Source of the DNA: Candidatus Magasanikiibacteriota bacterium
GTDB lineage: Bacteria > Patescibacteriota > Patescibacteriia > Magasanikbacterales > UBA922
Reading direction: 5' to 3'
DNA length: 54,625 nt
NCBI GenBank assembly: GCA_002716765.1
Contig: PBBY01000004.1
Location: 1-54,625 of the forward strand
Shown here piece after piece: positions 9,763-26,301 of the stretch. The notes under the pieces are model-generated. The model had not been told where the DNA came from, searched no databases, and was given only the letters and a program-made list of their open reading frames with translations. Both the position numbers and the translations under genes were made by a program. The first letter of the stretch is position 1, and each line of letters starts with the position of its first letter.

Positions 9763-10287
9763 TTATAGCTGACTTCTGTTTGTGTTAAATTGGTTTTTTA
9801 TAAAGTCTCTTGTTTCTCTTTCTATAGCTTGTAGTTCGGATTCTTCGTTTCGGATGTTTGCATCTGTTTCATATTTTTCTATGAGTTGTCTATTGTCATC
9901 AGGTTCTCTTAGGAGTACTTGTGTCACAAAGACGGTGATTGAGTATGCCGATAGTACAATAACAAGACCAAGTGTGCTTATTTTTAAAATATTTTTTGCT
10001 TTTGTTACTTTTTCTTCTTCTCCAGCAGAGGTAAACATAAGGATTCCGGCATAAACTATGGTTAAGACAAAAAGTGTGCCAACAAAAGTAAGCCCATTTC
10101 GTATAATTGCTGCAATAACATCGCGTGGGTCTTTGGATTGGATTATGGCAAGGTCTTGCTCGGCGGCAGCTGAGCCAAGTTGTTTTACTAAATCTGTTCT
10201 GTAGTCAGCAGAAGTGCTGTCTACAAACATAAGAAAAGCCGCAAGCGTCATGGAAAAACAGAGGAGTGTGAAGATGTTTCTTTTCAT
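9763..10287 (-). CDS. TrbC/VirB2-like pilin (T4SS_pilin family) 16
   Basis: Signal peptide plus core YAGILMFTSAGEEEKVTKAKNIL...GLVIVLSAYSIT; charged helical C-tail. Confidence 0.85.
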   Translation of the reverse strand: MKRNIFTLLCFSMTLAAFLMFVDSTSADYRTDLVKQLGSAAAEQDLAIIQSKDPRDVIAAIIRNGLTFVGTLFVLTIVYAGILMFTSAGEEEKVTKAKNILKISTLGLVIVLSAYSITVFVTQVLLREPDDNRQLIEKYETDANIRNEESELQAIERETRDFIKNQFNTNRSQL

Positions 10288-10299
10288 ATATATAAAATA

Positions 10300-10803
10300 T
10301 TATCTACTTACGCAGTCGAATGAGCCTTTTTGCCAGAATTTCCATTTATTTACTTTGCACTGAACCGTTGGCGGTGCCTCTTGGTGAACCCGATCTTGCA
10401 AAGATTTAAGCATAACCTGGCTAACTATTGTAGTAATGGCATATGCAGAAAGGGTGACAAATAATCCAATAACGGCCATTTTTATGGTTGTGAGCGCTTT
10501 TGTTACTTTTTCTTGTTCTCCGGATGCGGTTAAGAGCATGATTCCGGAATAGAGTACAAGTAGTAAGAAGACGGTTCCAACCACAGTAAGAAGTGACTTA
10601 ATAAATTCGGCAATAACTACTTGTGGGTTTTCTCTTGCAACGCCCATTTCTGCACTTTCTGCGCCAGCTTTGAGTTGTTTTGTTACATTTGCCCCAAAAC
10701 CCTTCTGCTTTGTGTTTGTTTCAAGAGCGTTAGCATTTACGAATGAAAACGTAAAAAAGAAAAAAGAAAGACAAATGACTGAAATGAGTAGTTTTTTGTT
10801 CAT
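10300..10803 (-). CDS. TrbC/VirB2-like pilin 15
   Basis: Core YSGIMLLTASGEQEKVTKAL; short 2-Cys C-tail. Confidence 0.85.
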   Translation of the reverse strand: MNKKLLISVICLSFFFFTFSFVNANALETNTKQKGFGANVTKQLKAGAESAEMGVARENPQVVIAEFIKSLLTVVGTVFLLLVLYSGIMLLTASGEQEKVTKALTTIKMAVIGLFVTLSAYAITTIVSQVMLKSLQDRVHQEAPPTVQCKVNKWKFWQKGSFDCVSR

Positions 10804-10812
10804 AAAATAGTA

Positions 10813-11484
10813 TTAAAGTAATCCACCCGTGCCTTTTGTTTCGGATGCTTTGTTGAGTCGTTGGAAATTAAGACATTGTGATTCCCTGATTGTAACATAT
10901 TCGCAGTCTAGGGCGTCTGGGTTGTCTTGTTTTGTTTTGGAGGCACAGCCACCCCAATATGATTCACAATTAGATTCTTTTACATATGGAATAGTTTTAT
11001 ATACAGAGGTGGTATCAATGACAGCTTTTGGATCAAATTTTTCTAATAAACAACAGCCAATAATTGGGTCTTGTGCAGAAGACTTTCCTTCGCCGGTTGC
11101 CCGTTTTACAAATTGTGGTACCACAAAGTTGGTAATGGTGTATGCGCCGGTGGTTATAACAATACCAATAATAGCCATGCGAATAGTGGTAATGGATTTG
11201 GTTACTTTTTCGTCCTCTCCGCGTGCGGTTAAGTACAGAAATCCAGCGTAAAACATGAGTGCAAAAAAGAGAGTTCCAATAAATTGCAGGGCAAGGTTTA
11301 TTACTCTTCCAATATTTGTGGCTACACGTGTTTCGTCTGTTCCGGTTACATCAAATCCAGATTTCCTTGCAATGCTTGCACCAAGATCTTGACCAATATT
11401 TAGTTGAGCAAACACGGAGTTTGCAACAAAAAAAGAAAGGAGAAGTGCCAGGAGAATAAAAAGGTAGGTGGTGTTTTTTTTCAT
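10813..11484 (-). CDS. TrbC/VirB2-like pilin 14 with Cys-rich C-terminal domain
   Basis: Core YAGFLYLTARGEDEKVTK; tail GCC...C...C...C...C. Confidence 0.85.
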   Translation of the reverse strand: MKKNTTYLFILLALLLSFFVANSVFAQLNIGQDLGASIARKSGFDVTGTDETRVATNIGRVINLALQFIGTLFFALMFYAGFLYLTARGEDEKVTKSITTIRMAIIGIVITTGAYTITNFVVPQFVKRATGEGKSSAQDPIIGCCLLEKFDPKAVIDTTSVYKTIPYVKESNCESYWGGCASKTKQDNPDALDCEYVTIRESQCLNFQRLNKASETKGTGGLL

Positions 11485-11515
11485 AAGGATTTTGCTGGGT
11501 TAATTAGTGTGTTTA

Positions 11516-12055
11516 TTATCTTCTTTCAGGGGGAACACACTGGTTTTCTGGAATACGTTTTATTTCTCCGGCACAATTATTCTTTTCTTGCTGATTACTG
11601 GCTACGTTTGCGCCTGTTGGAATATTTTTTGTAAATGTTATACAACAATCAACTATTTTTGCTCCTTTTATGTCGGAGGTTTTTGACGTGATTCTTGGTA
11701 AAATAAAAGTAGTAAGGCTGTATGCGCCAATACATAAAACAAGACCAATTATGGATGTACGAATAGTACCTTTTGCTTTTGTGGCTTTTTCTTCGTTTTC
11801 TCTGGCAGTCATCCACATTAATCCGGCATAAACAGTAAGTGCAAGGAAAATGGTTCCGACAAAGGTAAGCAATACATTAATAGTAAACCCAATAGTAGCA
11901 GAAAGTGTTGTGTCTGTTGTTGATTTATCAAAACCAGCAGTTGCTGCTGCATTTCTGACTTTATTTGTACCAATGTCTACTACGGCAAAAGCGGGAAGAG
12001 TAACAAAAAATACCAATATAATGACAGAAATAAAGAGTGAAAGTTTTTTTCGCAT
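11516..12055 (-). CDS. TrbC/VirB2-like pilin 13 with Cys-rich tail
   Basis: Core YAGLMWMTARENEEKATKAK; tail DCC...C...C. Confidence 0.85.
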   Translation of the reverse strand: MRKKLSLFISVIILVFFVTLPAFAVVDIGTNKVRNAAATAGFDKSTTDTTLSATIGFTINVLLTFVGTIFLALTVYAGLMWMTARENEEKATKAKGTIRTSIIGLVLCIGAYSLTTFILPRITSKTSDIKGAKIVDCCITFTKNIPTGANVASNQQEKNNCAGEIKRIPENQCVPPERR

Positions 12056-12064
12056 AAAAATTAA

Positions 12065-12454
12065 TTAACCTATACTTCCTAATTGTGCGGTAATAAGGTA
12101 TGTAATAGCATAAGCACTTAACGTAATAACTAATCCAATAAGTGTGGTTCGAATTATTGTTTTTGCTTTTGTGGCTTGTTCTTCGTTTTCTCTGGCAGTC
12201 ATCCATAAATAGCCGGCGTAAACCATAAGAACAAGGAAAATAAGACCAATAAAAGACAACGCCACTTGAATAACATTTCCAATAATAACGTCGAGTGATG
12301 CGGTCTTCTTTGTTACCCCAGCCTTACCTGCAGAAGTTGTAAGTTTTTTTTCCCAATCTCCTAATGTTCCGGCAGCGTGTGCGGTGCTTGCGTAAATAAC
12401 TCCAGCAAAAGTAAGTGAAAGGGTGGTGAATTGTTTTTTATATTTGTTTGTCAT
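12065..12454 (-). CDS. TrbC/VirB2-like pilin 12 (minimal)
   Basis: Core YAGYLWMTARENEEQATKAK; no tail. Confidence 0.88.
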   Translation of the reverse strand: MTNKYKKQFTTLSLTFAGVIYASTAHAAGTLGDWEKKLTTSAGKAGVTKKTASLDVIIGNVIQVALSFIGLIFLVLMVYAGYLWMTARENEEQATKAKTIIRTTLIGLVITLSAYAITYLITAQLGSIG

Positions 12455-12505
12455 ATATTTGCTAACTTTTGTGTAAAGTATTAAACCTAAGATTTTTATT
12501 TATAG

Positions 12506-13207
12506 TTAATTTAGTTGCCAATTAGGTTCACTAAATAGAGTGGTCTGCAAGTCATCCCCGCCAAATTCATTGGCTTTATTGCATATATCTACACAAAGGC
12601 TGTAGCTGCTAAATGTAGAATTAAATCCCGAGGTTCCATTACCACAAACCGGGTCTCCAACCGAGCAGCTTTTTTGCTCTAGCACACACTCTTCTTTTGT
12701 TTTTATGGAACAGGAATATTCATTTGTACCCCAAGAGTCGTTAATCATGTTTATGCAACAACCATAAACCAGGTCTTTTGCTTCCTCAATTTTTTGGCCA
12801 CCTGTTGGTTTTGTTGTTCCGGTTGCACCTTGTAATACAACATTTGTAATAGTGTAGGAAGAAATGACAATAATTAGCCCGATAATTGCTGTTGTCATCA
12901 TGGTTCTGGCTTTTTTTGCTTGTTCTTCGTTTTCTCTTGCGATCATCCAGGTGTAGCCGGCGTATACCATAAGAATAAAAAACACGGCAGTAATAAGGGA
13001 AAGTGCAAGATTTATAATAGTTCCTGATTGGGATTCTACAGTTTGTGTCGCGTCTATTCCTGTGCCTGTTATAGAGGCTTCAAGGAAGTTTGTTGCGCCT
13101 CGTAGTGTTTTCTCATTTGCTTTTGTGTGTAATATGTTAAAAAATAACGAAAAACAGAAACAACTGGCAAGAAGAAAGAGAGTATTTCGTGATAGTTTTT
13201 TGTTCAT
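12506..13207 (-). CDS. TrbC/VirB2-like pilin 11 with Cys-rich C-terminal domain
   Basis: Core YAGYTWMIARENEEQAKKAR; tail starting GCC with 8 Cys. Confidence 0.85.
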   Translation of the reverse strand: MNKKLSRNTLFLLASCFCFSLFFNILHTKANEKTLRGATNFLEASITGTGIDATQTVESQSGTIINLALSLITAVFFILMVYAGYTWMIARENEEQAKKARTMMTTAIIGLIIVISSYTITNVVLQGATGTTKPTGGQKIEEAKDLVYGCCINMINDSWGTNEYSCSIKTKEECVLEQKSCSVGDPVCGNGTSGFNSTFSSYSLCVDICNKANEFGGDDLQTTLFSEPNWQLN

Positions 13208-13241
13208 AGCAGTGGTTTGAGGTTAAGGAAGGTGTGGGTTA

Positions 13242-13634
13242 TTATTGACTGCCATCAGTCGGAGGAGATGTATTCTCTTCTACGCTTGTAAAGACAAAAT
13301 TGGTAATGGCGTAGGCGGAAAGTACCACAACCAATCCTATAATTGCGGCAATAATGGTTTTTTGTGCTTCTTTTACACCCTCTTCGTTTCCTCTGGCGGT
13401 CATCCATTTAAATCCAGCGTATACCATAAGGATAAAGAAAATAACACCAATTATAGAAAGTATGGTTCCGATAAGGTTTCCAATAATAGCTTCTGGCTCC
13501 TCTTTAATGGTTAGTCCGGCATAATTGGCAGTAATCTCTAATCCACCAGCTTCTGCAGCAAAACTATGTGCCGCTGGAAAAAGTGTAAAAAGGAGAATAG
13601 TAAGACTGCTAAATAATATAATGGATTTTTTCAT
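13242..13634 (-). CDS. TrbC/VirB2-like pilin 10 (minimal)
   Basis: Core YAGFKWMTARGNEEGVKEAQ. Confidence 0.88.
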   Translation of the reverse strand: MKKSIILFSSLTILLFTLFPAAHSFAAEAGGLEITANYAGLTIKEEPEAIIGNLIGTILSIIGVIFFILMVYAGFKWMTARGNEEGVKEAQKTIIAAIIGLVVVLSAYAITNFVFTSVEENTSPPTDGSQ

Positions 13635-13700
13635 AGAGTTAAGTTAATGGTTTTTTTATATTTTTGTGTCGTTTTTTCATAATAGAGTTTCAATTCAATC

Positions 13701-14495
13701 CTAATTAGGTTCTCTGAGTTCTTGACAAATGCATGTTTCTTTATCATCAGTCAACTCACAATTACCAACCCATCCTTTGTTGGAGCATGCTTCTCCTACA
13801 TTCTTACCAATACAAGCATCCCAAGTTGAAAATGTGCCATCTGGTTGTGCTTTTACTTCTGTATTTGGACAAAGTCCTGGTACAAGAAGCTCGGTAAGTG
13901 CTTTTATGTCTTCGTTTTGTGGTGAACATTGTTCCGCATTATTTGTAGGATAAAATGTGTTGGCAAAATAATCAGTATTTTGACCCCTTGCACTATTAAA
14001 TGCATCATCACACTCTTTTTGGGTAAATAAACTTTCAATTAAGAAAATACCTTTTTCTTTATCTTTTGGGATCAGTACACAACACCCTTTATCTCCTTCA
14101 TTCTCACTCTCACCTTCTAAACTGGAAAACAAGAAATTTGTTAATGAATATGACGAAAGTACTATGATTAATCCAACCGATGCTGCAATTATGGTACTTT
14201 GTGCTTTTTTTGCTTGATCTTCTTTTCCTCTTGCTGTCATCCACAAAATTCCTGCATAAACCATTAGGATAAAAAATATTACGGCAACGGTGTAGAGTAA
14301 CGCGCCCAATGCTTTTCCGATCATTGTTGGGATGTCTCTATTTTTTCTAAAATCTGCATCTACTATGCTGTTTGTATCAGAAAATCCTTTTTTTACTTGT
14401 TCTATTGCGTTACTTTGTGCCAATGTGTGTTGAAATGGCGCAATACACAAAAATAATAGAAGTAATAGGAGTATATTTTTGTGTCGTTTTTTCAT
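13701..14495 (-). CDS. TrbC/VirB2-like pilin 9 with Cys-rich C-terminal domains
   Basis: Core YAGILWMTARGKEDQAKKAQ; GCC module plus CPNT...CIG...GE.C...C...C.C module. Confidence 0.87.
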   Translation of the reverse strand: MKKRHKNILLLLLLFLCIAPFQHTLAQSNAIEQVKKGFSDTNSIVDADFRKNRDIPTMIGKALGALLYTVAVIFFILMVYAGILWMTARGKEDQAKKAQSTIIAASVGLIIVLSSYSLTNFLFSSLEGESENEGDKGCCVLIPKDKEKGIFLIESLFTQKECDDAFNSARGQNTDYFANTFYPTNNAEQCSPQNEDIKALTELLVPGLCPNTEVKAQPDGTFSTWDACIGKNVGEACSNKGWVGNCELTDDKETCICQELREPN

Positions 14496-15107
14496 AACTA
14501 TTTATCAGTTATTAAGGATTTGGTTCGGCTGCTGCACAGCCGCAAACAGAGTCTTCTAACTCACATACACTACCCACTTTTTGGTCACAAATTTCTCCAA
14601 TCCTTCTTCCTATACAAAGATTTTGCCTTGGTTTTTCTGTGGAAACTTGTGTGTTTGGACAAAGTTCTGGTACAAAAAGGTTTGACTGTTCACTTGTTTG
14701 GAAGGCGGTTTCACAGTGACAGTGATTTGGAATATTTGTGTAGTTTTTTATTTGACAAGTACCTTGAATGTTACCCTGATTAGGAATAATAATGGTACAG
14801 ACACTGTCTATTGGTTTATTGTAGCAAGGTGTTTCCATGTTTCCTCCATGAACCACCTTAGATGAGCAGTTCTGTATACTCTCACCCTCCAAACTCGCAA
14901 ACAAGAAATTTGTTAATGAATATGACGAAAGTACTATGATTAATCCAACCGATGCTGCAATTATGGTGCTTTGTGCTTTTTTTGCTTGATCTTCTTTTCC
15001 TCTTGCTGTCATCCACAAAATTCCTGCATAAACCATTAGGATAAAAAATATTACGGCAACGGTGTAGAGTAACACACCCAATGCTTTTCCGATCATTATT
15101 GGGATGT
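14127..15107. repeat. 209-bp near-identical duplication of the pilin core (14127-14335 and 14899-15107)
   Basis: 4 mismatches in 209 bp by manual alignment; flanking domains diverged. Confidence 0.9.
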
Positions 15108-15258
15108 TTGTTTTTTTAAGGCCGGAGTCTGTTATTTGTCCTGCGGTTTGATCTAATCCAAGTTTGCCAAATTTTGTTACGGCAGCAAATGATTGAATTG
15201 GGGCAAAACACACAAAAAAGAGAAATATGATTGATACTATAATGAAACATTTTTTCAT
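14512..15258 (-). CDS. TrbC/VirB2-like pilin 8 with two Cys-rich C-terminal modules
   Basis: Core nearly identical to pilin 9; tail has two C..C..C..C..C.C modules. Confidence 0.87.
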   Translation of the reverse strand: MKKCFIIVSIIFLFFVCFAPIQSFAAVTKFGKLGLDQTAGQITDSGLKKTNIPIMIGKALGVLLYTVAVIFFILMVYAGILWMTARGKEDQAKKAQSTIIAASVGLIIVLSSYSLTNFLFASLEGESIQNCSSKVVHGGNMETPCYNKPIDSVCTIIIPNQGNIQGTCQIKNYTNIPNHCHCETAFQTSEQSNLFVPELCPNTQVSTEKPRQNLCIGRRIGEICDQKVGSVCELEDSVCGCAAAEPNP

Positions 15259-15290
15259 ACTTTTGTATGTGTTTTACGGGTTTTGCGCTG

Positions 15291-15707
15291 TTATTGTTGG
15301 TCTACTCTTTCTGTTTCTACGCCCGTTTCATAATCAATTCCTGTGGTTGCGCTATATAGTTGTGTAGTAACAAATCTGGAAATAGAGTAGGCGCTTAAAA
15401 TTAATGCTAAACCAATAACCGATGAAAAGAGTACTTTTTTTGCTTTTGCTACTTGATCGTCATTTCCTCCGGAAGTCATCCACATAAATCCTGCATACAC
15501 AATAAGAATGAGTGCGACAATACCAAGTAATCCAAGGGCAACGTTAATAATTTCTGCTGTTGTTGTTCGAATATCTTTTGCACCAAGACCAGAACGTGCA
15601 CCATGACGAACACCAAGTGGGTCAGCACCTTGAGCTTGGGTTGCGGTTGGTAAAACAGTGAATGAAAAGAAGAGAAAGGCACAAGCAAAAAGACAAGCTT
15701 TTTTCAT
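15291..15707 (-). CDS. TrbC/VirB2-like pilin 7
   Basis: Core YAGFMWMTSGGNDDQVAKAK. Confidence 0.88.
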   Translation of the reverse strand: MKKACLFACAFLFFSFTVLPTATQAQGADPLGVRHGARSGLGAKDIRTTTAEIINVALGLLGIVALILIVYAGFMWMTSGGNDDQVAKAKKVLFSSVIGLALILSAYSISRFVTTQLYSATTGIDYETGVETERVDQQ

Positions 15708-15755
15708 AGAAGTGTATTATGTAAATAATATGCGCATCACCTTGTAAAAGATGGT

Positions 15756-15815
15756 GTAAAAACTAGAAATTAGAGACTACTTTCCAGTTTTTAAAAGGGA
15801 ATAACCCCTTTTAAA
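15756..15815 (-). terminator. Double-hairpin 3' element after pilin 6 (duplicated at 16339-16398)
   Basis: TTTAAAAGGG-GTTATT-CCCTTTTAAA then AAACTGGAAAGTAG-TCT-CTAATTTCTAGTTT; 59/60 identical to the second copy. Confidence 0.65.
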
Positions 15816-15818
15816 TTA

Positions 15819-16277
15819 TTAAAAACTATATTGATTTGCTCCGGTAACAGCAGTGGCTTGACCAAGTTGAATAAGCACAAATCTGGCGATTGCCCAGGCA
15901 CTCATTATGATTGCCAAACCAATTATTCCAGATAAAATAAGTTTCTTTGCTTCTTCTACTTTGTCGTCGTTTCCTCCGGCAGTCATCCATTTAAATCCAC
16001 CAAGAAGAATTATAACAACAGCAACGATTCCAAGTAAGCTCAGCATAACATTTATGATTCTGGCAACGGTTGTTTGCAAATCTGCTTTTCCAAGTGCAGT
16101 GGTTTCGTGAATTGGATCAATACCAAAAACATCATCATTTTGTGCGGCACCTTGATTGTTTGGTTCAACCCCACCATCGTTTGCAAAAACATTTGATGCG
16201 GCTAATGTAGAAAATAGTACGGCTGCAATAATTGCAATAATAGTTTTGTATTTTACTAAACGCATTGCTAAATACAT
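15819..16277 (-). CDS. TrbC/VirB2-like pilin 6 (candidate major pilin)
   Basis: Core GGFKWMTAGGNDDKVEEAKK; full SD AAAGGAGGTGAT. Confidence 0.9.
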   Translation of the reverse strand: MYLAMRLVKYKTIIAIIAAVLFSTLAASNVFANDGGVEPNNQGAAQNDDVFGIDPIHETTALGKADLQTTVARIINVMLSLLGIVAVVIILLGGFKWMTAGGNDDKVEEAKKLILSGIIGLAIIMSAWAIARFVLIQLGQATAVTGANQYSF

Positions 16278-16338
16278 AATATCACCTCCTTTTTTGTGTG
16301 GTTTGTCATATATTTTTGTTCTTCACCTAAAAGATGAA

Positions 16339-16398
16339 GTAAAAACTAGAAATTATAGACTACTTTCCAGTTTTTAAAAGGGAATAACCCCTTTTAAA
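16339..16398 (-). terminator. Double-hairpin 3' element after pilin 5
   Basis: Copy of 15756-15815. Confidence 0.65.
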
Positions 16399-16402
16399 AT
16401 TA

Positions 16403-16912
16403 TTATAGTTCGTATGCTGTTGCTCCGGTAACATCTGTTGCTTGGCCAAGTTGAATAAGTACAAATCTGGCAATTGCCCAGGCACTCATTACAATAGCTA
16501 AACCAATAATTCCAGCTAAAATAAGTTTCTTTGCTTCTTCTACTTTGTCGTCGTTTCCAGCTGCTGTCATCCATTTAAATCCACCAAGAAGTATGATAAC
16601 TACTGCAACAATCCCAAGTAAACTTAATGCAACGTTAATGATTCTTGCAATAGTAGTTTGTAAATCTGCTTTTCCTAGTGCGGTTGTGCCATGAATGGAG
16701 TCCATACCAAATACATCAACTTGAGCTGCAACTTTACAAATACCATTGAAACAGACGTCGGTTTCTAATGTACAAGTATTTCCAGGTAGACACACGTCAT
16801 CTGTATCACCAGCTGCTGCAAAAACACTTGATGCGGCTAATGTAGAAAATAGTACTGTTGCAATAATTGCAATAATAGTTTTGTATTTTACTAAACGCAT
16901 TGCTAAATACAT
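16403..16912 (-). CDS. TrbC/VirB2-like pilin 5 (candidate major pilin; paralog of pilin 6 with a 4-Cys N-terminal insert)
   Basis: Same leader MYLAMRLVKYKTIIAIIA, same core, insert CLPGNTC...C...C; SD AAAGGAGGTGAT. Confidence 0.9.
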   Translation of the reverse strand: MYLAMRLVKYKTIIAIIATVLFSTLAASSVFAAAGDTDDVCLPGNTCTLETDVCFNGICKVAAQVDVFGMDSIHGTTALGKADLQTTIARIINVALSLLGIVAVVIILLGGFKWMTAAGNDDKVEEAKKLILAGIIGLAIVMSAWAIARFVLIQLGQATDVTGATAYEL

Positions 16913-16985
16913 AGTATCACCTCCTTTCGTTGTTGGGTTTGTTTCATATAATAATACAGTATGGGAATAATATAATAAAAAAACG

Positions 16986-17414
16986 CTAAAAAATCCCCAG
17001 TATTTGGTTTAGTATAGCATAAGAACCAAAAATCACAAAAAGACCAATGGTTGCGTATAACATGGTTTGTGTGCCTTTTTTTACTTTTTCTTGGTTTCCG
17101 GCAGAGGTAAGCCACATAAACCCACCAAACATAAATGCCAAAAGCGTTAATGATCCAATAATTCCTAATGCTGTTTGCGCAACTTTTCCTATGAGCTCCT
17201 GAGGTGTGGCAGATGCAATTGGGTTTTGAAGCTGTCTTACTTTAGGTGCTATCTTGCTAAGGACGGGTGTTTGTGCTTTCGTATTTTGAGGCACTGCTGG
17301 AGCTGTTGCTGTAGCAGCTGTTGCAAAAGAGGTAAAAGAAAAACAAAAGCCACTAATTAAAATAAGAAAAAGAAATAATTGAATAGGAGAAAGGAGTTTG
17401 CGTTTAGCAGTCAT
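16986..17414 (-). CDS. TrbC/VirB2-like pilin 4
   Basis: LQNPI...GGFMWLTSAGNQEKVKKG core. Confidence 0.88.
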   Translation of the reverse strand: MTAKRKLLSPIQLFLFLILISGFCFSFTSFATAATATAPAVPQNTKAQTPVLSKIAPKVRQLQNPIASATPQELIGKVAQTALGIIGSLTLLAFMFGGFMWLTSAGNQEKVKKGTQTMLYATIGLFVIFGSYAILNQILGIF

Positions 17415-17440
17415 AAAATACGTATAAAGTAATAGTTAAT

Positions 17441-17449
17441 AGTATAGCA
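17441..17449 (-). promoter_or_regulatory. Extended -10 element (TGCTATACT), internal promoter of the pilin array
   Basis: Same TGCTATACT motif lies upstream of rmuC (5588-5596) and of the pilV-like gene (26223-26231). Confidence 0.5.
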
Positions 17450-17503
17450 TTAACGTGTTGGAAAAAAAAGGCGTAGCACTGTGCAAAACACACACGTAAG
17501 TTG

Positions 17504-18262
17504 TTATTTTATTACGCGTACGTTTTCTTTTACGCCAGTTGTGTCTAAAACAATTTGTATTATTAAATGAGCAAAAATTGCGATACAAATACCAATAACC
17601 GCGGCAATCATAATACCTTGACCTTTTTTAAACTTTTCCGGGTTTCCAAAAGACATAATCATGGTAAATCCACCAAATAAAAACATAACAAAAGCAATGG
17701 AACCAATAATACTTAAAATAAATTCAGAAATGTTAATACCAATACATAAATAATCATTGAGATTTCTACAATTGCCATCTACGGCGCATTGTGGTAATAA
17801 TCCTTCCACTTTTTTGCATCTGTCTACAAGTGGTTCTTGGAGTTTTTTTGCAATTTCTTTTTCTGCTGGGCCAATGCTTGCGCTTATTGTTGTGATTTCG
17901 TCAAGTGTTTTATTTAAGACTTCAACACTTTTCAAAAAATCAATATTCTGGCTTAAGTTTAAGGGGTCTACTGTTAGAACTTCTAAAATAATGTTTTCCG
18001 CCTCAGTTAACAGATCTTTTACTTTTTCAATCACAAGTTTAGCTTCTGTTTGGTAGGCAAGGTCTTTTGTACTTGCTAATAACGTTTTAGCCTCATCCAT
18101 AATTCTTTCTGAGTCTGTTAAGATACTGTCTTCGTATGATCCTTCTACAAACAAATCAGAAATTTTTTGCGCCTTTACTACAAAAGGTAAAAATAGAGCA
18201 CAAATAATACTACATATAATGGTGTGTATAAAAAAGCGGGGGAGTGTGCGAGAGTGTGTCAT
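17504..18262 (-). CDS. TrbC/VirB2-like pilin 3 with helical N-terminal extension
   Basis: C..GLLPQCA.DGNC...C then GGFTMIMSFGNPEKFKKG core. Confidence 0.85.
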   Translation of the reverse strand: MTHSRTLPRFFIHTIICSIICALFLPFVVKAQKISDLFVEGSYEDSILTDSERIMDEAKTLLASTKDLAYQTEAKLVIEKVKDLLTEAENIILEVLTVDPLNLSQNIDFLKSVEVLNKTLDEITTISASIGPAEKEIAKKLQEPLVDRCKKVEGLLPQCAVDGNCRNLNDYLCIGINISEFILSIIGSIAFVMFLFGGFTMIMSFGNPEKFKKGQGIMIAAVIGICIAIFAHLIIQIVLDTTGVKENVRVIK

Positions 18263-18271
18263 ATAGTGGTA

Positions 18272-18985
18272 TTATTTTACAGCTCTAAAACTGTCATGTG
18301 TACCAAGAGTATCTAGAATAAGATCCACAATAAGATGTGCCGAAAGTGCAACAACAATTCCTACAACGGCCAAAACCATAATACTTCTACCTTTTTTAAA
18401 CTTTTCTGGGTTTCCAAAAGACATGATCATGGTAAAACCACCAAATAAAAACATCACAAAAGCGATGGAACCAATTAATTGAAGGAGGAGTTTTGATATA
18501 TTTATTCCCATGCAAACATAATCATCGGTATCAAGACAATTACCATCCAAAGCACATTGTGGTAATAAGCCTTTAATAGCTGCACATCGGTTTGGGAGGT
18601 TGTCTGATAAGGTGTTAAAACTAGCGCTTGTTTTGGTTCTTAATGCGGTAATTTTTGTTTCAATATTAAGTTTGTTAACTTCAAGAAGATCTGCTTGTTT
18701 GGAATTATTTTTTGCAAATGTATCCCACTTTTCTGCTAATTCTAACTCTGCTTCAAATCTTTTATAGGTAGTGTTTGCTGTTTCTTTTGTGGCAAAACGA
18801 GGTATGTCTCTTGCTGCATCTTGGGCGGCTTTTAGGTGTGTGTTAGCTTGGTCTATTGCTTTTTGTATTGCCGGATCTGTTATTGCTAAAGCAGTGTACT
18901 GAATGGCAAAAAAGGCACATATACAAAGAGTGGCATAAAAGAAATAATGGATTTTTTTAAAGCGAAAATAATTGCGCGTGATCAT
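18272..18985 (-). CDS. TrbC/VirB2-like pilin 2 with helical N-terminal extension
   Basis: Paralog of pilin 3; same Cys motif and core. Confidence 0.85.
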   Translation of the reverse strand: MITRNYFRFKKIHYFFYATLCICAFFAIQYTALAITDPAIQKAIDQANTHLKAAQDAARDIPRFATKETANTTYKRFEAELELAEKWDTFAKNNSKQADLLEVNKLNIETKITALRTKTSASFNTLSDNLPNRCAAIKGLLPQCALDGNCLDTDDYVCMGINISKLLLQLIGSIAFVMFLFGGFTMIMSFGNPEKFKKGRSIMVLAVVGIVVALSAHLIVDLILDTLGTHDSFRAVK

Positions 18986-19016
18986 AAAATGGAATTACAA
19001 TAAAAAGAGTAAAAGA

Positions 19017-20396
19017 TTAATTTGTTCCTTGCATTTGGTTTGGCAGGTTTTGTATAATGTCTTCTTGTCGTTTTTGTGCAATATCTTCTGGATATTCTTC
19101 TATAATGGTGTCTAAGTATTCTTTTATTTTTGTATACGCACCGGTTGCGTCTGTGCCACGATACCAATTTTTTGCGGTAAGAATTTGCGATGCAAATGGT
19201 CCTAAAAATGGATCTTCTGATTGTGCTGCAATTTGTGATCGTAATGGCGATGGTTGATTTGTTGCTTTGGAGTATTTTTCTATATTAGCAGGTAATGTAA
19301 TAAAGCGAACAAAATCCCATGCATGATCTTTGTGTTTGGATTTTTTTACGACACTTTCTATCCAATAAGACGCAACATTGACCGGTTCGGCTTCGTTGAG
19401 TTGGGGAAGTGGAATAATTTCTAAATTCATTTGTGGTGCTCTGGCGGTTATTCTGGATTTTTCAAAAGAAAACCCAATATAAAAGACGGATTTATTTTGG
19501 ACAAATGCATCAAATGCACGTTCTTTGTCTGTGCTCCAAGAATAGACTTCTTTTGTTGGCCTGGCAAAGTCCGTATAAAAACGGGTTACTTCGTATGCTG
19601 GATCATTTTTGTTTGCGCCAGTCATGCCACGAGTAAAGGATAAATACCCTCTTTGTGCGACATCTATTCCTTTTTGCATTAATAGTGCGGCAAAAATATC
19701 TGCTGAATTGGCAATATTACTCCCGGTGCCAAGCGCAATACCAGATTGTATAATATCGCCATTATTGTTATAAATTGTTGCTTTTTTTACGGCGTCTGTT
19801 AATTCTGTCCAATTTGTTGGTGGTGTAGGAATGCCGGCACGGTCGAGTAAATCTTTGTTGTAATATACAGCCAATGTGTCTACGGCCAATGGTAGTCCAT
19901 AAACGGTGTTTCCACTAATTACATCTTCTGAGACGGTTTTTATGTAATTACTTCTTATCCATGATTTGCTTGGTAGAGGGTTTGTTTCAAAGGTAACAAC
20001 CGGTTCCTGTGTGTATTTTCCTTTTATAAAAAAGTTTGCGGTTGTGGCTGAGTCTGGCATTTTGTCTATTCTTGATCTGTATTTTTCTAATTCTTTTATG
20101 GGAACAGAAATAATATCTGGTCCAACGTCGTCTGCAAGGGCATTAACAAATAATTCATCAAATTCCTCTAATCGTACGCGGCGAATATTGACATTTACGT
20201 ATGATCTTTGTGCATTATATTCTTTTGCAAAGTTTCGTAATTGGTTTACGTCATTATAAATAGTCCAATACGATAATTTTACTGGTCTAATTGCCGCCGT
20301 TTCTTTTTCCGAAAGGCCTTTGCAGCCAACACCAGACAAAAGAAGAACGGCACAGAGAATTCCGGTGGTAATATAACGAAATAAAGATCTTTTCAT
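19017..20396 (-). CDS. Extracellular solute-binding lipoprotein (sugar ABC SBP family 1 fold)
   Basis: Lipobox-like LSGVGC; GPDI, YGLPLAVDTLAVYYNKDLL...PPTNW.EL, AWDFVRF. Confidence 0.88.
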   Translation of the reverse strand: MKRSLFRYITTGILCAVLLLSGVGCKGLSEKETAAIRPVKLSYWTIYNDVNQLRNFAKEYNAQRSYVNVNIRRVRLEEFDELFVNALADDVGPDIISVPIKELEKYRSRIDKMPDSATTANFFIKGKYTQEPVVTFETNPLPSKSWIRSNYIKTVSEDVISGNTVYGLPLAVDTLAVYYNKDLLDRAGIPTPPTNWTELTDAVKKATIYNNNGDIIQSGIALGTGSNIANSADIFAALLMQKGIDVAQRGYLSFTRGMTGANKNDPAYEVTRFYTDFARPTKEVYSWSTDKERAFDAFVQNKSVFYIGFSFEKSRITARAPQMNLEIIPLPQLNEAEPVNVASYWIESVVKKSKHKDHAWDFVRFITLPANIEKYSKATNQPSPLRSQIAAQSEDPFLGPFASQILTAKNWYRGTDATGAYTKIKEYLDTIIEEYPEDIAQKRQEDIIQNLPNQMQGTN

Positions 20397-20417
20397 ACAA
20401 AAAGGGATAAAAATACA

Positions 20418-21458
20418 TTAAAATACATTTTTGAAAATAAAGTTAACAATAATATAACTGGTTAAAATAACAATCACACCAGCCGAAGTCCAAAAAATCA
20501 TATTCATTGCTTTTTTCTCTCGCTCGGCGTTTCCGGCAGCAGTCATCCACATAATGCCAGAAAAAACAAATAATACAAGTGTAATGGAACCAATAATTTG
20601 CATAATAAGTTTTATGGCTTTTCCGATTACTTTTGCTGGATCAGACATTTGACTAACGCGGATTGTACCAAGCAGGCTTTGATATTCTTCGATAACAAGT
20701 GGTTCTTCTGTAATTTGTGTGGTAATCGGTTTGTCTGAACATTGGTCTTTAACAATAAAACAGTCTACACACCGAATCCTTCCAAATTCCTTTGTTGAGT
20801 CAAGTGCACCACAATCATTTTCCTGGGATTTGTGAGTGGCATTATTGTAAAAAAACTTTGTTTGTGAATAATTTTTACCATTAATAACAAAAGTAAAAGA
20901 TTCACACGCTTCATTTCCCTGTAAAACAAAGTTGCCACAAGTGTCGCCACTTAGCCTATTAAGATTATCGATGATTTCTTCAGTATTTGCTACATATTTT
21001 TGTAATTGTTTTTCTAGTTTCATAAAACTAGTAGCCAAGTTAATACGTTTTTCTCTTGTGTCAGAATTACTGCAATAAAGATGTGGTTGAACTCTATCAA
21101 CCAGATCCTGAATTCTTCTTGGTCGATTCGCACTGGCACTTATACTATAAGATCTACTTTTTCTTATCTTTTCCTTAATACTCTCAATTTTAGTAGAAGT
21201 GGTTTTGTCGGGTTTTTGTGTAAGAAGTGTATCATACATAGTTTCTACCTCAGCAAGTAGTGTGTTTCTCTTTTGTATTTCCTGTGTCCATTTTGTATGA
21301 GCCTTTTTTGCAAAAGACATTTCTCTTGGAGTACACTCTGGATTTTCAATCCTTTTATACCGTTCTCCCAAAGCAAAAACCGGCGTAGCACTACTTAATA
21401 AAAAAAACACTCCGATCAAAAAAGAGAAAATATATAGTATGTTTTTTCTTTTAGTCAT
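20418..21458 (-). CDS. TrbC/VirB2-like pilin 1 with large N-terminal helical plus Cys-rich domain
   Basis: Start moved to ATG 21458 (signal peptide follows); C-terminal core SGIMWMTAAGNAEREKKAM. Confidence 0.82.
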   Translation of the reverse strand: MTKRKNILYIFSFLIGVFFLLSSATPVFALGERYKRIENPECTPREMSFAKKAHTKWTQEIQKRNTLLAEVETMYDTLLTQKPDKTTSTKIESIKEKIRKSRSYSISASANRPRRIQDLVDRVQPHLYCSNSDTREKRINLATSFMKLEKQLQKYVANTEEIIDNLNRLSGDTCGNFVLQGNEACESFTFVINGKNYSQTKFFYNNATHKSQENDCGALDSTKEFGRIRCVDCFIVKDQCSDKPITTQITEEPLVIEEYQSLLGTIRVSQMSDPAKVIGKAIKLIMQIIGSITLVLFVFSGIMWMTAAGNAEREKKAMNMIFWTSAGVIVILTSYIIVNFIFKNVF

Positions 21459-22417: not shown

Positions 22418-23773
22418 TCATATTTCTATGTGTTCGTCAATTTCTATTGGTGCACCAAACCGACTACCTTGTCCTTTGGGGAATCCTGGAGGAGCATCTT
22501 CGAGGAGTTGTGGGTCAAAGGTATACTGCACCGTTTGGTACCCAGAGTAAAAGTCTCCGGCATTAGTTTTGTGCTTAAGACTTGGTAAAGAAGAGGCAAT
22601 ATATGTACCAAGCAAGTGAAAAGAGTTCCTGGTATTTTTTTCTAGTGCTGGGTCATATATATTTCGAAATAATCTTGATATTGATGGAGCCATCAATACC
22701 GCTTCTATTGTCATGTTATTTGGTGAATCATAAGGAATTATTAAAAATCCCCGAGTAAATAGTCCTAAAATATGATTACCGCTATTATCCTTTTTTGTAA
22801 TAGTATCATTAAGAAAAAACCCATATCCAATATTTGGGTTCGTAAAAAACGTTGCTTTTCCGTTTATAACACCATCTATCCATACATAATTATGAACATA
22901 AATAACACCGTTTTCTGGGAAGTCGTAGTGGCCAACAAATACTTCGTTTCCAATAGTGTTACAGTAACTTCTGGAGCAGTTGTGTTGATTGCAGTGGCAT
23001 TCTCGTGATGTTACTTTATACAAGTCAAAACCACCTGTTTCTAGTAACACCACATGCCAACCAAGCCCACCATGTGGTGCAGGAATTATTAATCCTTCAT
23101 CATGTTCTGCCATTGATGATAAGGTGTTAATGGTGTCTTGTCTGAGCCCAACAAAATCAATTGGTGGAACTGGAGAATGCCATAATTCGGCAGGACCACC
23201 AGAACCCTGAATCATATTTGCTTGTATTTCTTGGTTTATAAGTATATTACATGTCAAGGTATTATTACTGTGAACACTTCCAGAAATTTGCATGTCCGAG
23301 GATAATATGCCTGGGTTCTTAATGGTAAGGATATACGGAAATGCAAAACCACCTTCTCCTTGTGTTATTTTAAAAGTTTTTTTGATGTTTGGGTAATTGT
23401 GAAGCCATCCGGTAGATTGAATGCTTGTTGCATCATTTTCGTCCTGTGTAACGGAAATAGCATAAGAGCCGATTACATTGCCGTGTGCATCGGTGTAATC
23501 ATGAACAAATGGTCCTGGAGTTCCTGGTGGATTTCCATCCCATAAATCATCTGGGTTATTGTGTAGTACCCATGAATAATACGTGGTTCCAGCTTCTGCA
23601 ATCTCACGAATTTGTGCATGTTTTGTTATTTGAGTATTGTGTCGTAACACCATTGTGCCATACGCGCTTAACCCAAGCGTAAGACTTAAAAGTAGTGCAC
23701 TACCAAAAACAAGTACTAATAATAATGACGATCCTTTTGTATTAAATCTAAGTTGTGTTAAAAGATTTTGCAT
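22418..23773 (-). CDS. PilX-like type IV minor pilin / assembly protein
   Basis: KG-SSLLLVL class III-like leader lacking E5, IAEAG motif, C-terminal Y.FDP.L....PPGFP. Confidence 0.75.
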   Translation of the reverse strand: MQNLLTQLRFNTKGSSLLLVLVFGSALLLSLTLGLSAYGTMVLRHNTQITKHAQIREIAEAGTTYYSWVLHNNPDDLWDGNPPGTPGPFVHDYTDAHGNVIGSYAISVTQDENDATSIQSTGWLHNYPNIKKTFKITQGEGGFAFPYILTIKNPGILSSDMQISGSVHSNNTLTCNILINQEIQANMIQGSGGPAELWHSPVPPIDFVGLRQDTINTLSSMAEHDEGLIIPAPHGGLGWHVVLLETGGFDLYKVTSRECHCNQHNCSRSYCNTIGNEVFVGHYDFPENGVIYVHNYVWIDGVINGKATFFTNPNIGYGFFLNDTITKKDNSGNHILGLFTRGFLIIPYDSPNNMTIEAVLMAPSISRLFRNIYDPALEKNTRNSFHLLGTYIASSLPSLKHKTNAGDFYSGYQTVQYTFDPQLLEDAPPGFPKGQGSRFGAPIEIDEHIEI

Positions 23774-23785
23774 AATATCTAGTCA

Positions 23786-24391
23786 CTATGGGAGTTGCAC
23801 AAACGTTTGATAGGTTTTTGGTTTGGGATTGCTCATATTTTTTGACTCAACAATCAGTGTTACTGTAATTAATGATATTTGTGCTATATCTATTGGTTCT
23901 TCTAGTGGGTTATCTGTGTAAACGGATTGTCCGGCAGAATAAAAAGAAAATAATCCGGTTTGTGCGTGTTCATCATTAAGAGTAGTAAAAAGTACTGTTT
24001 CTACGGCGCCAGCTTCGTTATATGAATTAGTATTTTGGTCGTATGGTGTAATAATTTTACGAAGTATGTGGTTTTCCCTTTCGTATTGTATTTTTTTAGG
24101 GAACGTATGAGGTTTCTGTAAATAATAGAATGTAAGTCTGTTTTCTGAGGCAGTGGTAAGCGCAGCCTCTCCTGTTGCCCCCGATGTTATTCGTTTTATT
24201 TCTTCGGTTATTTCTGCAACAAATCGTCTCGCGGCAAATTCTGTGTCTAAGGTGGACTCTAGTTGTGTGCTTTGTGAACTGGCTGCAATAAAAAACTGTG
24301 AAACAGTAAGTATGATAAGTGTAGAAATAGCAATGCAGAGTACTAATTCCATGAGCGTAAATCCTTTTGTGTTTTTTTGCAGTAGTGTCAT
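23786..24391 (-). CDS. PilW-like type IV minor pilin (prepilin N-terminal cleavage/methylation)
   Basis: KG-FTLMELVL. Confidence 0.85.
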   Translation of the reverse strand: MTLLQKNTKGFTLMELVLCIAISTLIILTVSQFFIAASSQSTQLESTLDTEFAARRFVAEITEEIKRITSGATGEAALTTASENRLTFYYLQKPHTFPKKIQYERENHILRKIITPYDQNTNSYNEAGAVETVLFTTLNDEHAQTGLFSFYSAGQSVYTDNPLEEPIDIAQISLITVTLIVESKNMSNPKPKTYQTFVQLP

Positions 24392-24395
24392 ATGT

Positions 24396-26180
24396 TTAGC
24401 TTTTTGTCATAAACACCTGTTCGTTCATATTTCCTTGAATCGGCATGTTTTGTTGATGCATAATATATCCTGGGGCAGTAATAGTCATGGTATATACAGC
24501 ATTATTAAGATTATTAAAAAATACTTGGCCTGGCATGGTGCAATCAGAAGTTTTTTCAAATGAAATAGCGGAAAGCGCTGGAGAAAGTGTAGAGGATGGA
24601 GTGGAAAAATGTGCAAAATACCGAAGATAGCGATGATCTGTATCTAATTGTATTCCTTGTGATGTAATATAGTATGAATTTGGTGTACCGTCTGGACCAA
24701 GGTATTCCCAATCCTGCTCTATTGGTTCATCGCTTGTTGCTAACTGCATTTTGAGACTATTGTATGGTAAAAATCGGTTTTGTATTTTTGGATTTGGCAC
24801 AATCCGAACCAATTGCTGCGCTTCTTCTCCTAAATCTACAATAGATGACTCTATGTATCCGTTTGGTATGTATGATGTTCCTGCTTTGGTAAGGCGAATA
24901 TTTCCTGGCTCGGAAAACACATCTACTGTGGCGCTGTCGTCCCAATACTTACTTGTGTTAGTAAAAAGTAATTGGTTGTTGCCACCAGACCAATCTGTTT
25001 GTGTTATGACACTTCCTGCGGTGGTGTGTTCTGTGGTTTGGTTATTTACTGTAAGAGAAACGGTAGCATTTGGAATAATAGCATTGGTTTCTTGGTCTAA
25101 AACAGAAATACGTGCAGTATGTTCGGATCCTTCGCCAATAATAATAGATAAATCATGAATGGTGCCAGGGGCAAGCGGTGTTGGGGTTGGCGGAGACGAG
25201 CCAATAATAACAAAACCAGGAACTTGCGGTATAATACGTTCGGGCAATATATTTTCAAAAAAAGCAGTACCTGTATTATCTGATAATTGTGTGGTATTAA
25301 GTAAATAAATGTCAGGTTCTGTACCAAGAAGAGTTTCTCCGGTAAGACTTATTTCGGTATTTGCTTGCGGTACGCATGCTTGGTCACGAATATGTAACCG
25401 AAGCGTGGCTTGTGCATCTATAATAACGGTTTTTTCTGTTAGCTCGCCATCCGTAATGGTAAGTGGTGGATTTGTTGGGTTGGGATTTGCTTCTGAAGCA
25501 ATAATGGATTGGGCTGTGGTAAATCCGTTTTTTGTAACAGTAAATGCGTATTCGTTTATACCAATTGGAATTTGCGGTAACAATATTTTTCCTTCGGCAT
25601 TGGTAGAATCAATAATAGAGAGTGGGGGATTGAGTGAGCGTGACGTAATATGCACTTGGGCTTGCTGAATAGGTTGGCCAGCAGTATCGCGTACTATAAT
25701 GGTAAGTGCACCAGTATTTTCTGCAAGATCTTCATTTGGTGAAAATAAATACGCAGACGCGTGCCCGGTAAGTGTACTATTGCAATTGGTGCAGTGTGTT
25801 TCTACAAATATATGTTTATAATCAGCCGGTTGTGCGTCTGGTGGATTGCTTGTAGTAGTACCGTCTGTTGGGTGGTCTATAAAACGAACGGTTCGCGTGA
25901 TAATAATTTCTTGGTTTTGGAAGGTGTGTGTCTGGGTTTTTTGTAATATTCCGGCTGGGATTCCTTCTAAAATACCAATATCACTATAATTAAGGTTTTG
26001 TATTGCTACCAAATCATTTTTTGCTACTTGTGACAGTGTGGAATGTAAACTGGTGGTTTGTATTAGTTTTGCTACCATACGAACCCCAGCAATAACACCA
26101 AAAGCAAATAATATAAAAATACTAACAGAAACGAGTATTTCTATTGTGCTAAATCCACGAGTATTATATGTGTGTTTCAT
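24396..26180 (-). CDS. PilV-like prepilin fused to carboxypeptidase-regulatory (Ig-like) domains
   Basis: RG-FSTIEILV; G.L.I.V.D..G.PI..A.V-type repeats; start placed at ATG 26180. Confidence 0.8.
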   Translation of the reverse strand: MKHTYNTRGFSTIEILVSVSIFILFAFGVIAGVRMVAKLIQTTSLHSTLSQVAKNDLVAIQNLNYSDIGILEGIPAGILQKTQTHTFQNQEIIITRTVRFIDHPTDGTTTSNPPDAQPADYKHIFVETHCTNCNSTLTGHASAYLFSPNEDLAENTGALTIIVRDTAGQPIQQAQVHITSRSLNPPLSIIDSTNAEGKILLPQIPIGINEYAFTVTKNGFTTAQSIIASEANPNPTNPPLTITDGELTEKTVIIDAQATLRLHIRDQACVPQANTEISLTGETLLGTEPDIYLLNTTQLSDNTGTAFFENILPERIIPQVPGFVIIGSSPPTPTPLAPGTIHDLSIIIGEGSEHTARISVLDQETNAIIPNATVSLTVNNQTTEHTTAGSVITQTDWSGGNNQLLFTNTSKYWDDSATVDVFSEPGNIRLTKAGTSYIPNGYIESSIVDLGEEAQQLVRIVPNPKIQNRFLPYNSLKMQLATSDEPIEQDWEYLGPDGTPNSYYITSQGIQLDTDHRYLRYFAHFSTPSSTLSPALSAISFEKTSDCTMPGQVFFNNLNNAVYTMTITAPGYIMHQQNMPIQGNMNEQVFMTKS

Positions 26181-26301
26181 GAGAGTAAAAACCAAAAAAA
26201 CAAGACGTGGTTCGTCTTGCGTAGTATAGCATAAAAATATATTTCTAGCATTGCATATGTCGAAGATTTTTTTGTTGTATTACCTGTTCGTTCAACAATA
26301 A

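Follow-up and report, generated by a model that had tools for sequence, protein, structure and literature searches.

Tandem arrays of genes for VirB2-like pilins are a known trait of Patescibacteria: according to the main text of a recent survey (PMC12102498, Quinonero-Coronel et al. 2025), 441 such arrays with two to 11 genes occur in 383 assemblies, their members being on average 25% identical over the whole protein. In the one species tested, Southlakia epibionticum ML1, its type IV secretion system (T4SS) and a six-pilin array are reported to be essential for growth on the host (PMC10633639, Wang et al. 2023; review PMC12857230), and according to a perspective of 2024 it is 'completely unknown' what the T4SS of Saccharibacteria does (PMC11665869). 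Here we describe a locus in a DNA stretch of 54,625 nt (the window; contig PBBY01000004.1 of assembly GCA_002716765.1, contig C4 below) from a Candidatus Magasanikiibacteriota bacterium, an ultra-small and probably host-dependent, presumably marine organism. The locus is an enlarged chromosomal VirB2-like pilin array of a Patescibacterial T4SS-like system, which probably contributes to a mixed surface structure. As an initial annotation of the window had stated, and as the survey documents, multi-pilin loci as such are familiar from the candidate phyla radiation; new here are the unusual size and the elaboration of the array.

A 16-gene array with a common hairpin core

The 16 pilin genes (g1 to g16), encoding proteins of 129 to 346 residues, lie co-oriented on the minus strand at positions 9763-21458, with spacers of 9-125 nt. 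g1 to g15 are consecutive, and only between g15 and g16 is the run of pilin genes interrupted, a point on which the initial annotation has to be corrected, by one foreign gene for an SBP_bac_1 lipoprotein (19017-20396, minus strand, 459 aa, 76.8 bits). This layout falls under the published definition of an array, i.e. at least two pilin genes that either adjoin each other or have one non-pilin gene between them. All 16 genes are complete, each with its own start codon and signal peptide, there are no silent cassettes among them, and together these hairpin genes take up about 1.1% of the genome (an assembly of 886 kb in 22 contigs, 89.7% complete). The end coordinate given previously, 21458, coincides with the ATG that opens the signal peptide of g16; the TTG at 21536 chosen by the open reading frame (ORF) finder overlaps the upstream gene.

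In hmmscan, T4SS_pilin (PF18895) was the best family for all 16 proteins, with E-values down to 3e-13; 14 of them exceeded the gathering cut-off of 26.6 bits, with g3 (24.4 bits) and g9 (23.8 bits) staying just below it, and in a six-frame search of the genome all 16 copies in the window scored above it (27.4 and 27.5 bits for these two). The TrbC/VirB2 family (PF04956) was matched below its threshold by g11, g10 and g7 (25.8, 24.6 and 23.9 bits; E 1.3e-5 to 4.9e-5). The traits of the PF18895 family, i.e. a signal peptide and two hydrophobic helices linked by a short loop with charged residues, are present throughout: by a crude rule-based check, rather than by SignalP or a trained predictor, each N-terminus is signal-peptide-like, with two to four Lys/Arg followed by a hydrophobic stretch of 12-15 residues, and the loop between the helices contains two to four Lys/Arg. 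For all 16 proteins, the alignment of the 76-residue two-helix core is free of gaps, with a mean pairwise identity of 35% (17-95%), and the two glycines of its motif, which is of the type (Y/F)xGxxxxTxxG/ExxE/DxxxKAxxxI...G, are invariant. Both the common signal peptide and core of 16 co-oriented genes and their VirB2/TrbC-like identity, as initially proposed, are thus borne out by ORFs, family searches and alignment. Many weak chance matches to the DctQ, VKOR and Cyt_bd families could point to unrelated small membrane proteins, for instance holin-like or immunity proteins, that just resemble pilins; with PF18895 on top for all 16, a loop motif common to all of them and a trait that co-occurs with VirB4 (see below), however, we regard this as extremely improbable.

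The initial annotation depended on cores that fold as hairpins, and AlphaFold2 indeed models them as confident helical hairpins (pLDDT 80-93 in g6 and g7). In the model of g7, a signal helix and a disordered linker precede helices 47-79 and 84-122, which are predicted at pLDDT 83-93. A four-copy model of mature g11 (residues 48-152, 12-row alignment) scored 0.00 and carries no weight either way. VirB2 itself has both of its ends outside the cell. By this analogy, and by the positive-inside rule, the loop of the array members would be cytoplasmic and both mature ends would be outside. It is on these ends, which a VirB2-type topology puts outside the cell, that all of the decorations described in the following are located.

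Outer modules and evolution of the array

Five of the 16 pilins are bare (g5, g7, g10, g11 and g13), and the other 11 carry extra modules at the N- or C-terminal side of the hairpin. The architectures agree with those recognized initially, i.e. bare subunits, C-terminal Cys modules, an N-terminal 4-Cys insert and helical N-domains, and like types do neighbour each other. In the order of numbering, with all genes on the minus strand and scores referring to PF18895, g1 (9763-10287, 174 aa, 32 bits) has a charged and Cys-free C-terminal tail of about 46-50 aa behind its signal peptide and hairpin, and g2 (10300-10803, 167 aa, 35.9 bits) a short C-terminal tail with two Cys. g3 (10813-11484, 223 aa) and g4 (11516-12055, 179 aa, 30.3 bits) end in modules of six and four Cys, respectively, which open with GCC and DCC. 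The bare g5 (12065-12454, 129 aa, 31.8 bits) is followed by g6 (12506-13207, 233 aa, 29.1 bits), in which hairpin and flexible linker lead to a compact, conserved 8-Cys GCC domain, and by the bare g7 (13242-13634, 130 aa, 44 bits). C-terminal modules with ten and 12 Cys are found in g8 (13701-14495, 264 aa, 29.8 bits) and g9 (14512-15258, 248 aa), and two bare pilins follow, g10 (15291-15707, 138 aa, 40.9 bits) and g11 (15819-16277, 152 aa, 48.9 bits), the latter a candidate major subunit. g12 (16403-16912, 169 aa, 50.1 bits) stems from a recent duplication of g11 and has an insert with four Cys that separates the signal peptide from the hairpin, and the bare g13 (16986-17414, 142 aa, 36.8 bits) has an Ala/Pro/Thr-rich N-terminal linker. 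In g14 (17504-18262, 252 aa, 31.3 bits) a helical N-domain and a 4-Cys knot precede the hairpin; its paralog g15 (18272-18985, 237 aa, 32.3 bits) shares this knot and has a core that is 70% identical, together with a helical N-domain that cannot be aligned to that of g14. In g16 (20418-21458, 346 aa, 29.6 bits), finally, an N-domain of about 254-272 aa with eight Cys precedes the C-terminal hairpin. One stretch of this N-domain (CGN...GNE.CE) resembles a DUF4215 repeat by eye only, with no Pfam match there.

From g1 to g16, the numbers of outer Cys are 0, 2, 6, 4, 0, 8, 0, 10, 12, 0, 0, 4, 0, 4, 4 and 8. All ten non-zero counts are even and the genome encodes two VKOR and three DsbA-like genes, and it is therefore plausible that the ectodomains are disulfide-bonded. 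The best-defined module is that of g6: in an alignment of 32 sequences C205 never varies and C150, C151 and C174 hardly do, and AlphaFold2 places a hairpin at 57-92/94-128, a low-confidence linker at 132-140 and an alpha/beta domain at 148-233 (pLDDT 75-92). Thus, the g6-type tip is predicted to be a conserved compact domain on a flexible tether. A TrbL/VirB6 match of 15.5 bits inside g6 is regarded as spurious. For the C-terminal module of g8 (residues 129-264), a homolog search of a large protein collection found g8 itself only.

PF18895 is found in all 41 genomes of the order, with a median of 16 matches (range 1-30) for the family to which the source genome belongs (25 genomes) and 6-15 for the other families, match numbers not being exact copy numbers. 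Three relatives of the same family (L001, L002 and L003) have arrays of at least 15, 13 and 11 genes, and best hits of 16, 14 and 13 of the 16 pilins, respectively, lie there in array order. In a maximum-likelihood tree of 55 cores, which has few alignment columns and leaves 18 of 52 forks unresolved, position-specific clades (g14/15, support 100/99; g11/12, 100/99; g1/2, 98/80; g3/4, 94/93; and also g13) each span all four genomes, and the central g6-g9 zone shows genome-specific duplicates. At least eight paralog lineages thus keep their order across four genera, with turnover only in this central zone. That each lineage stays in place across genera shows the paralogs to be non-redundant, in line with a core dN/dS of about 0.1.

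The solute-binding protein (SBP) gene also keeps its place: at the matching gap in all three relatives, tblastn finds it with 49-50% identity, and no transporter gene lies beside it. This embedded protein is possibly part of the apparatus. An NTP-transferase gene upstream of the array is kept in two of the three relatives. Directly upstream of this gene and the array, type IV pilus-like genes were seen at 22418-26195 (minus strand), the products of which are a protein of 201 aa that has a methylation motif at its N-terminus, one of 451 aa without family assignment and one of 599 aa with CarboxypepD_reg; the latter two are also found beside the array of L003.

The extensions, in contrast to this order, are mostly unconserved, i.e. 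alignments with relatives end at the core. The comparison of arrays suggested by the initial annotation thus reveals orthologous positions with differing decorations: at the g14/15 position the same-genus genome has no N-domain at all, and in the two others this domain comprises 410 residues (18 Cys) and 258 residues (14 Cys). The g12 ortholog in genome G010 carries an insert of the same type as g12. At the g16 position of L003 (12588-13946, minus strand, in genome G013) a pilin with a 378-residue N-domain was noticed that by eye resembles an SGNH/GDSL-type hydrolase. Moreover, the pilins evolve much faster than the ATPase, because in the same-genus genome the VirB4-like protein is 83% identical, whereas the best hits of the pilins are only 28-62% identical.

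Two pairs of neighbouring genes illustrate how such variation may arise. In g8 and g9, the cores share a near-identical tract (14106-14345 and 14878-15117, respectively, minus strand; 95% identity over 240 nt; repeat family D2), with a dS of 0.10 as opposed to 0.94 and 1.14 in the flanks, i.e. in the signal-peptide/linker and C-terminal regions. As purifying selection alone cannot lower dS in this way, either the core was homogenized recently or the tips were exchanged, and we read the tract as a putative gene-conversion tract. g11 and g12 have the opposite pattern: dS is 0.04 in the signal peptide and 0.86 in the core (dN/dS about 0.1, the value that characterizes the core), the 4-Cys insert is found in g12 alone, and the flanking intergenic DNA is nearly identical, including a terminator-like hairpin right after each gene. 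These hairpins, both on the minus strand, are located at 15775-15822 for g11 (-12.6 kcal/mol, z -2.8; within repeat D8) and at 16358-16406 for g12 (-13.5 kcal/mol, z -3.2), and are 96% identical. The terminator scan (12 sites versus 8.2 +/- 2.7 in shuffles) is informative only for these two, and the promoter scan (52 sites versus 38.8 +/- 7.1) is not informative. In the tips, dN is 0.69-0.77 at a dS of 0.94-3.0, i.e. saturated and from unreliable alignments, and we base no claim of positive selection on these values.

Variation between strains was sought in sequencing runs that consist of contigs only, so that depth cannot rank genes, and joints with sides below 30 letters, or placed at 80% likeness, were discounted. 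In a related strain in run X4, 91 nt of the g13 linker (17231-17323) are replaced by 34 nt, in frame and by 19 codons; the contig extends over 168 letters at the joint's shorter side. Where the g8/g9 and g11/g12 repeats lie, short contigs are interrupted, which is to be expected of real repeats. A joint that would fuse g11 to g12 (from 16025 to 16557) belongs to the weak class (short sides or 80% likeness) and was discounted.

Taken together, tandem duplication, locally acting gene conversion and outer-module replacement appear to shape the array, in which a fixed set of old paralog lineages keeps its order. Of the 'swappable' domains initially proposed, the mosaic structure of adjacent paralogs and the varying decorations stand; free exchangeability does not, given the old orthogroups in fixed order and the conserved tip of g6. 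Sharp identity boundaries in g8/g9 and g11/g12, outer modules that vary between genomes and a g8 tip without a relative among the proteins searched might also suggest an antigenic or phage-evasion repertoire, i.e. interchangeable variants of which one or a few are expressed at a time, with recombination reshuffling them in the manner of pilE/pilS in Neisseria or of VirB2 paralogs in Anaplasma and Bartonella. All 16 genes are complete, however, and no truncated silent copies of the pilE/pilS kind are present; the short spacers are operon-like; and gene order is conserved across four genera, with turnover in g6-g9 only. In our view the array does not behave as a repertoire that is shuffled freely or serves antigenic variation, and we consider an explanation of this kind highly improbable.

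Secretion machinery elsewhere in the genome and possible function

The window is ordinary chromosome, with tRNAs and genes for SSB, S6, IleRS, GyrA, FtsH, RuvA and glycosyltransferases; a 770-residue ORF without Pfam match (2070-4382, minus strand) adjoins a gene for RmuC. No VirB4, VirD4 or relaxase is encoded in the window, as already stated in the initial annotation and now confirmed by Pfam searches of 30 other ORFs and by whole-genome profile searches. As a basis for a 'non-conjugative filament', this absence holds for the window only, however, since machinery that was suspected elsewhere has indeed been located on other contigs. Contig C20 starts with a PrgI/VirB3-like gene (37.2 bits), followed by genes for a 230-aa protein and for a 625-aa P-loop_TraG VirB4-like protein (94.5 bits), the ATPase being split. 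Two VirD4-like coupling proteins (TrwB_AAD_bind, 50 and 44 bits; TraG-D_C), of 857 and 610 aa, are encoded on C16 and C12, respectively. VirB4 and VirD4 were detected only through PF19044, PF12846 and PF10412; PF03135 and PF02534 have no match in the genome. Given that PrgI, VirB4-like and VirD4-like proteins are encoded on these contigs, the most fitting interpretation of the array is that it belongs to a T4SS-like system.

Two coupling proteins and an ATPase in the genome, together with a family relationship to TrbC/VirB2, could indicate a conjugative or DNA-transfer pilus, which would operate in conjugation or in T4SS-based competence. Conjugative systems normally use one VirB2, however, which counts against conjugation for an array of 16 genes. 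These genes are chromosomal and lie amid housekeeping genes, and the system is inherited order-wide, with a VirB4-like protein of 64-85% identity in 37 of the 41 genomes. Searches for a relaxase with PF03432 and PF01076, the only two relaxase families used, gave nothing in this 89.7%-complete genome, and in the main text of the published survey relaxases are reported in only 103 of 3,035 genomes (PMC12102498). We thus regard a role in DNA transfer as very unlikely.

Outside the window, the genome contains three further PF18895 matches, in proteins of 4,564, 749 and 282 residues. In the largest protein (C14:29262-42956, minus strand), which has Big_5, TIG and DUF4215 domains, the first 130 residues are a signal peptide and a hairpin, and the adjoining gene (C14:43019-45268, minus strand) encodes the 749-residue Big_5 protein, at the start of which a signal peptide is likewise followed by a PF18895 hairpin. 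Both hairpins are 46-53% identical to g10-g12, i.e. above the mean within the array: g11 is the array member closest to the hairpin of the 749-residue protein (48%), and the hairpin of the giant protein is 53% identical to g11 and 46% to g10, the latter with a marginally better E-value. Across the order, pilin matches recur within open frames of about 640-810 and 2,550-4,660 residues, several of them side by side. The third protein, Cys-rich and with a sub-threshold PF18895 score, is encoded at a contig end, with a DsbA-like (Thioredoxin_4) gene directly upstream (C3:59508-60859, plus strand, for both genes). Inside the window, a 1,178-residue protein with five Cys-rich DUF4215 repeats and three CarboxypepD_reg domains is encoded at 29878-33414 (plus strand).

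We favour, with moderate confidence, the explanation that the array specifies a surface structure of mixed composition, linked to the T4SS, in which bare subunits form the shaft and decorated low-copy subunits make contact to the host. It is suggested by the conserved core, the bare members, the orthogroups in fixed order, the joint occurrence of pilins and VirB4, and naturally occurring fusions of hairpins into chains. When the 150 best relatives of g6 in a representative library are considered, a list that favours multi-domain proteins as their scores add up, 37 of 149 core-bearing proteins are chains of two to 15 hairpins, which give a hint of hairpin-hairpin packing or co-assembly. Metagenomic proteins (P0003, P0004, P0006, P0010 and P0034) have four to 15 hairpins behind one signal peptide, P0006 being the one with 15. 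Mechanistically, each protein would stay in the membrane after its signal peptide is cleaved, the short charged loop facing the cell interior and the two ends the exterior, and a VirB4-type ATPase would pull the hairpins out of the membrane into one mixed pilus or stalk. Pilins of the g10-g12 type would provide the bulk of this structure, the decorated paralogs would be low-copy subunits with disulfide-bonded domains facing the host cell, and the 749-aa and 4,564-aa pilin-fused proteins may fill the same decorated role.

Several points weigh against this explanation. No array gene reaches the PF04956 cut-off, the best score being 25.8 as compared with 27.9 bits, and g11 had no tblastn match in 72,556 plasmids. 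A profile of the 16 proteins gave only chance matches to PDB sequences (E >= 0.37), and Foldseek searches of the PDB with the models of g7 and g6 found nothing at E <= 0.001 and generic helical hairpins only; an archaeal conjugation pilus (8dfu) appeared at rank 18 with a non-significant E of 1.6, a helical hairpin being too simple a fold to discriminate. VirB6 was not found in the genome with the TrbL model, and the array on contig C4 is unlinked to the VirB4 locus on contig C20. In four of the 41 genomes of the order a VirB4-like gene was found neither with the protein query nor with PF19044, and three of these (G020, G024 and G034) keep 15-17 pilin matches, with G024 being 99% complete; in the fourth (G012, 94% complete), with a single pilin match, both are nearly absent. 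Such absences of VirB4 may stem from gaps in metagenome-assembled genomes, and in the source genome itself, the VirB4 locus is found at the end of a contig. Finally, a passenger of 4,400 residues cannot ride on every subunit of a helical pilus, so at least some members of the family may be plain membrane anchors.

This last point leads to the main rival explanation, membrane-anchored display without a filament, in which the hairpin would be a two-helix anchor, perhaps a sorting tag, no polymer would form and the T4SS would not be needed. One and the same hairpin at the start of the 749- and 4,564-residue proteins with their adhesin-type Big_5, TIG and DUF4215 domains, the recurrence of similarly large frames across the order, the pilin-rich relatives in which VirB4 was not detected, the unlinked VirB4 locus and a fold as unspecific as 'helical hairpin' would all be in line with such anchoring. 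Five of the 16 hairpins, however, are bare and have nothing to display, and a gap-free core with invariant glycines and a dN/dS of about 0.1 is conserved well above the needs of an anchor. Moreover, orthogroups are held in fixed order across the family, the fused chains suggest that hairpins pack against each other, and pilins and VirB4 occur together in 37 of 41 genomes. Anchoring as the general function of the array is thus a serious competitor, yet in our view an unlikely one.

A more far-reaching idea is that the hairpin is a general loading module, with which a VirB4 machine would stack proteins of 129 to 4,564 residues in gene order into a stalk for host contact. The SBP would capture host metabolites there, and the fused chains would represent the same stalk made as one polypeptide. 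We regard this as rather improbable.

With a mixed T4SS-linked structure as the preferred explanation, the locus shows to what extent the pilin side of a T4SS can be elaborated, and a conserved scaffold of old paralogs can be separated from a fast-changing, Cys-rich and outward-facing set. g10-g12 are candidates for the shaft subunit, and g3, g4, g6, g8, g9, g12 and g14-g16 as well as the two large pilin-fused proteins are candidates for host-contact subunits. As the organism is uncultured, the locus is a source of hypotheses rather than a system for testing them directly.

Comparison with known systems

With the arrays described in other Patescibacteria, the locus shares the PF18895 family, its chromosomal location, an arrangement in tandem or split by one gene, low identity between members, the absence of a detected relaxase and parts of an MPF-FATA-like system (PrgI and VirB4) in the genome. 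It differs by its 16 genes, as compared with two to 11 in published arrays, by not being located next to virB4, by its fixed order throughout the family and by the embedded SBP gene. Outer modules as found here on 11 of 16 pilins are not mentioned in the main text of the survey (PMC12102498), the supplements of which (Table S3, Fig. S9) may hold such data. Full-text searches found no published report of ectodomain-bearing pilins, of family-wide collinearity with an embedded SBP or of a 16-gene array, with the survey again represented by its main text and its supplements possibly bearing on array sizes and protein lengths.

The canonical VirB2/TrbC/TraA pilins (PF04956), e.g. of the Agrobacterium T-pilus or the F-pilus, have a signal peptide, two hydrophobic helices and a charged loop as well. 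They are, however, small and undecorated products of one gene per system, which lies beside virB3-virB4 in diderm hosts, whereas the pilins described here stay under the PF04956 cut-off and have no match on plasmids. A common assembly module of which only few subunits bind a target is also known from FimH of type 1 pili, i.e. a pilin joined to a lectin domain, and from the minor pilins of type IV pili. The logic would be the same, although folds and assembly machines are unrelated and no evidence places any of the paralogs described here at a tip. The VirB2 expansions of Anaplasma, Bartonella and Rickettsia, which are cited in the survey (PMC12102498), also comprise several tandem paralogs of non-conjugative T4SS, and these may serve to vary surface contact. 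Yet, in these intracellular animal pathogens the paralogs are few and undecorated, whereas the array described here combines 16 genes with modular outer domains in a conserved order.

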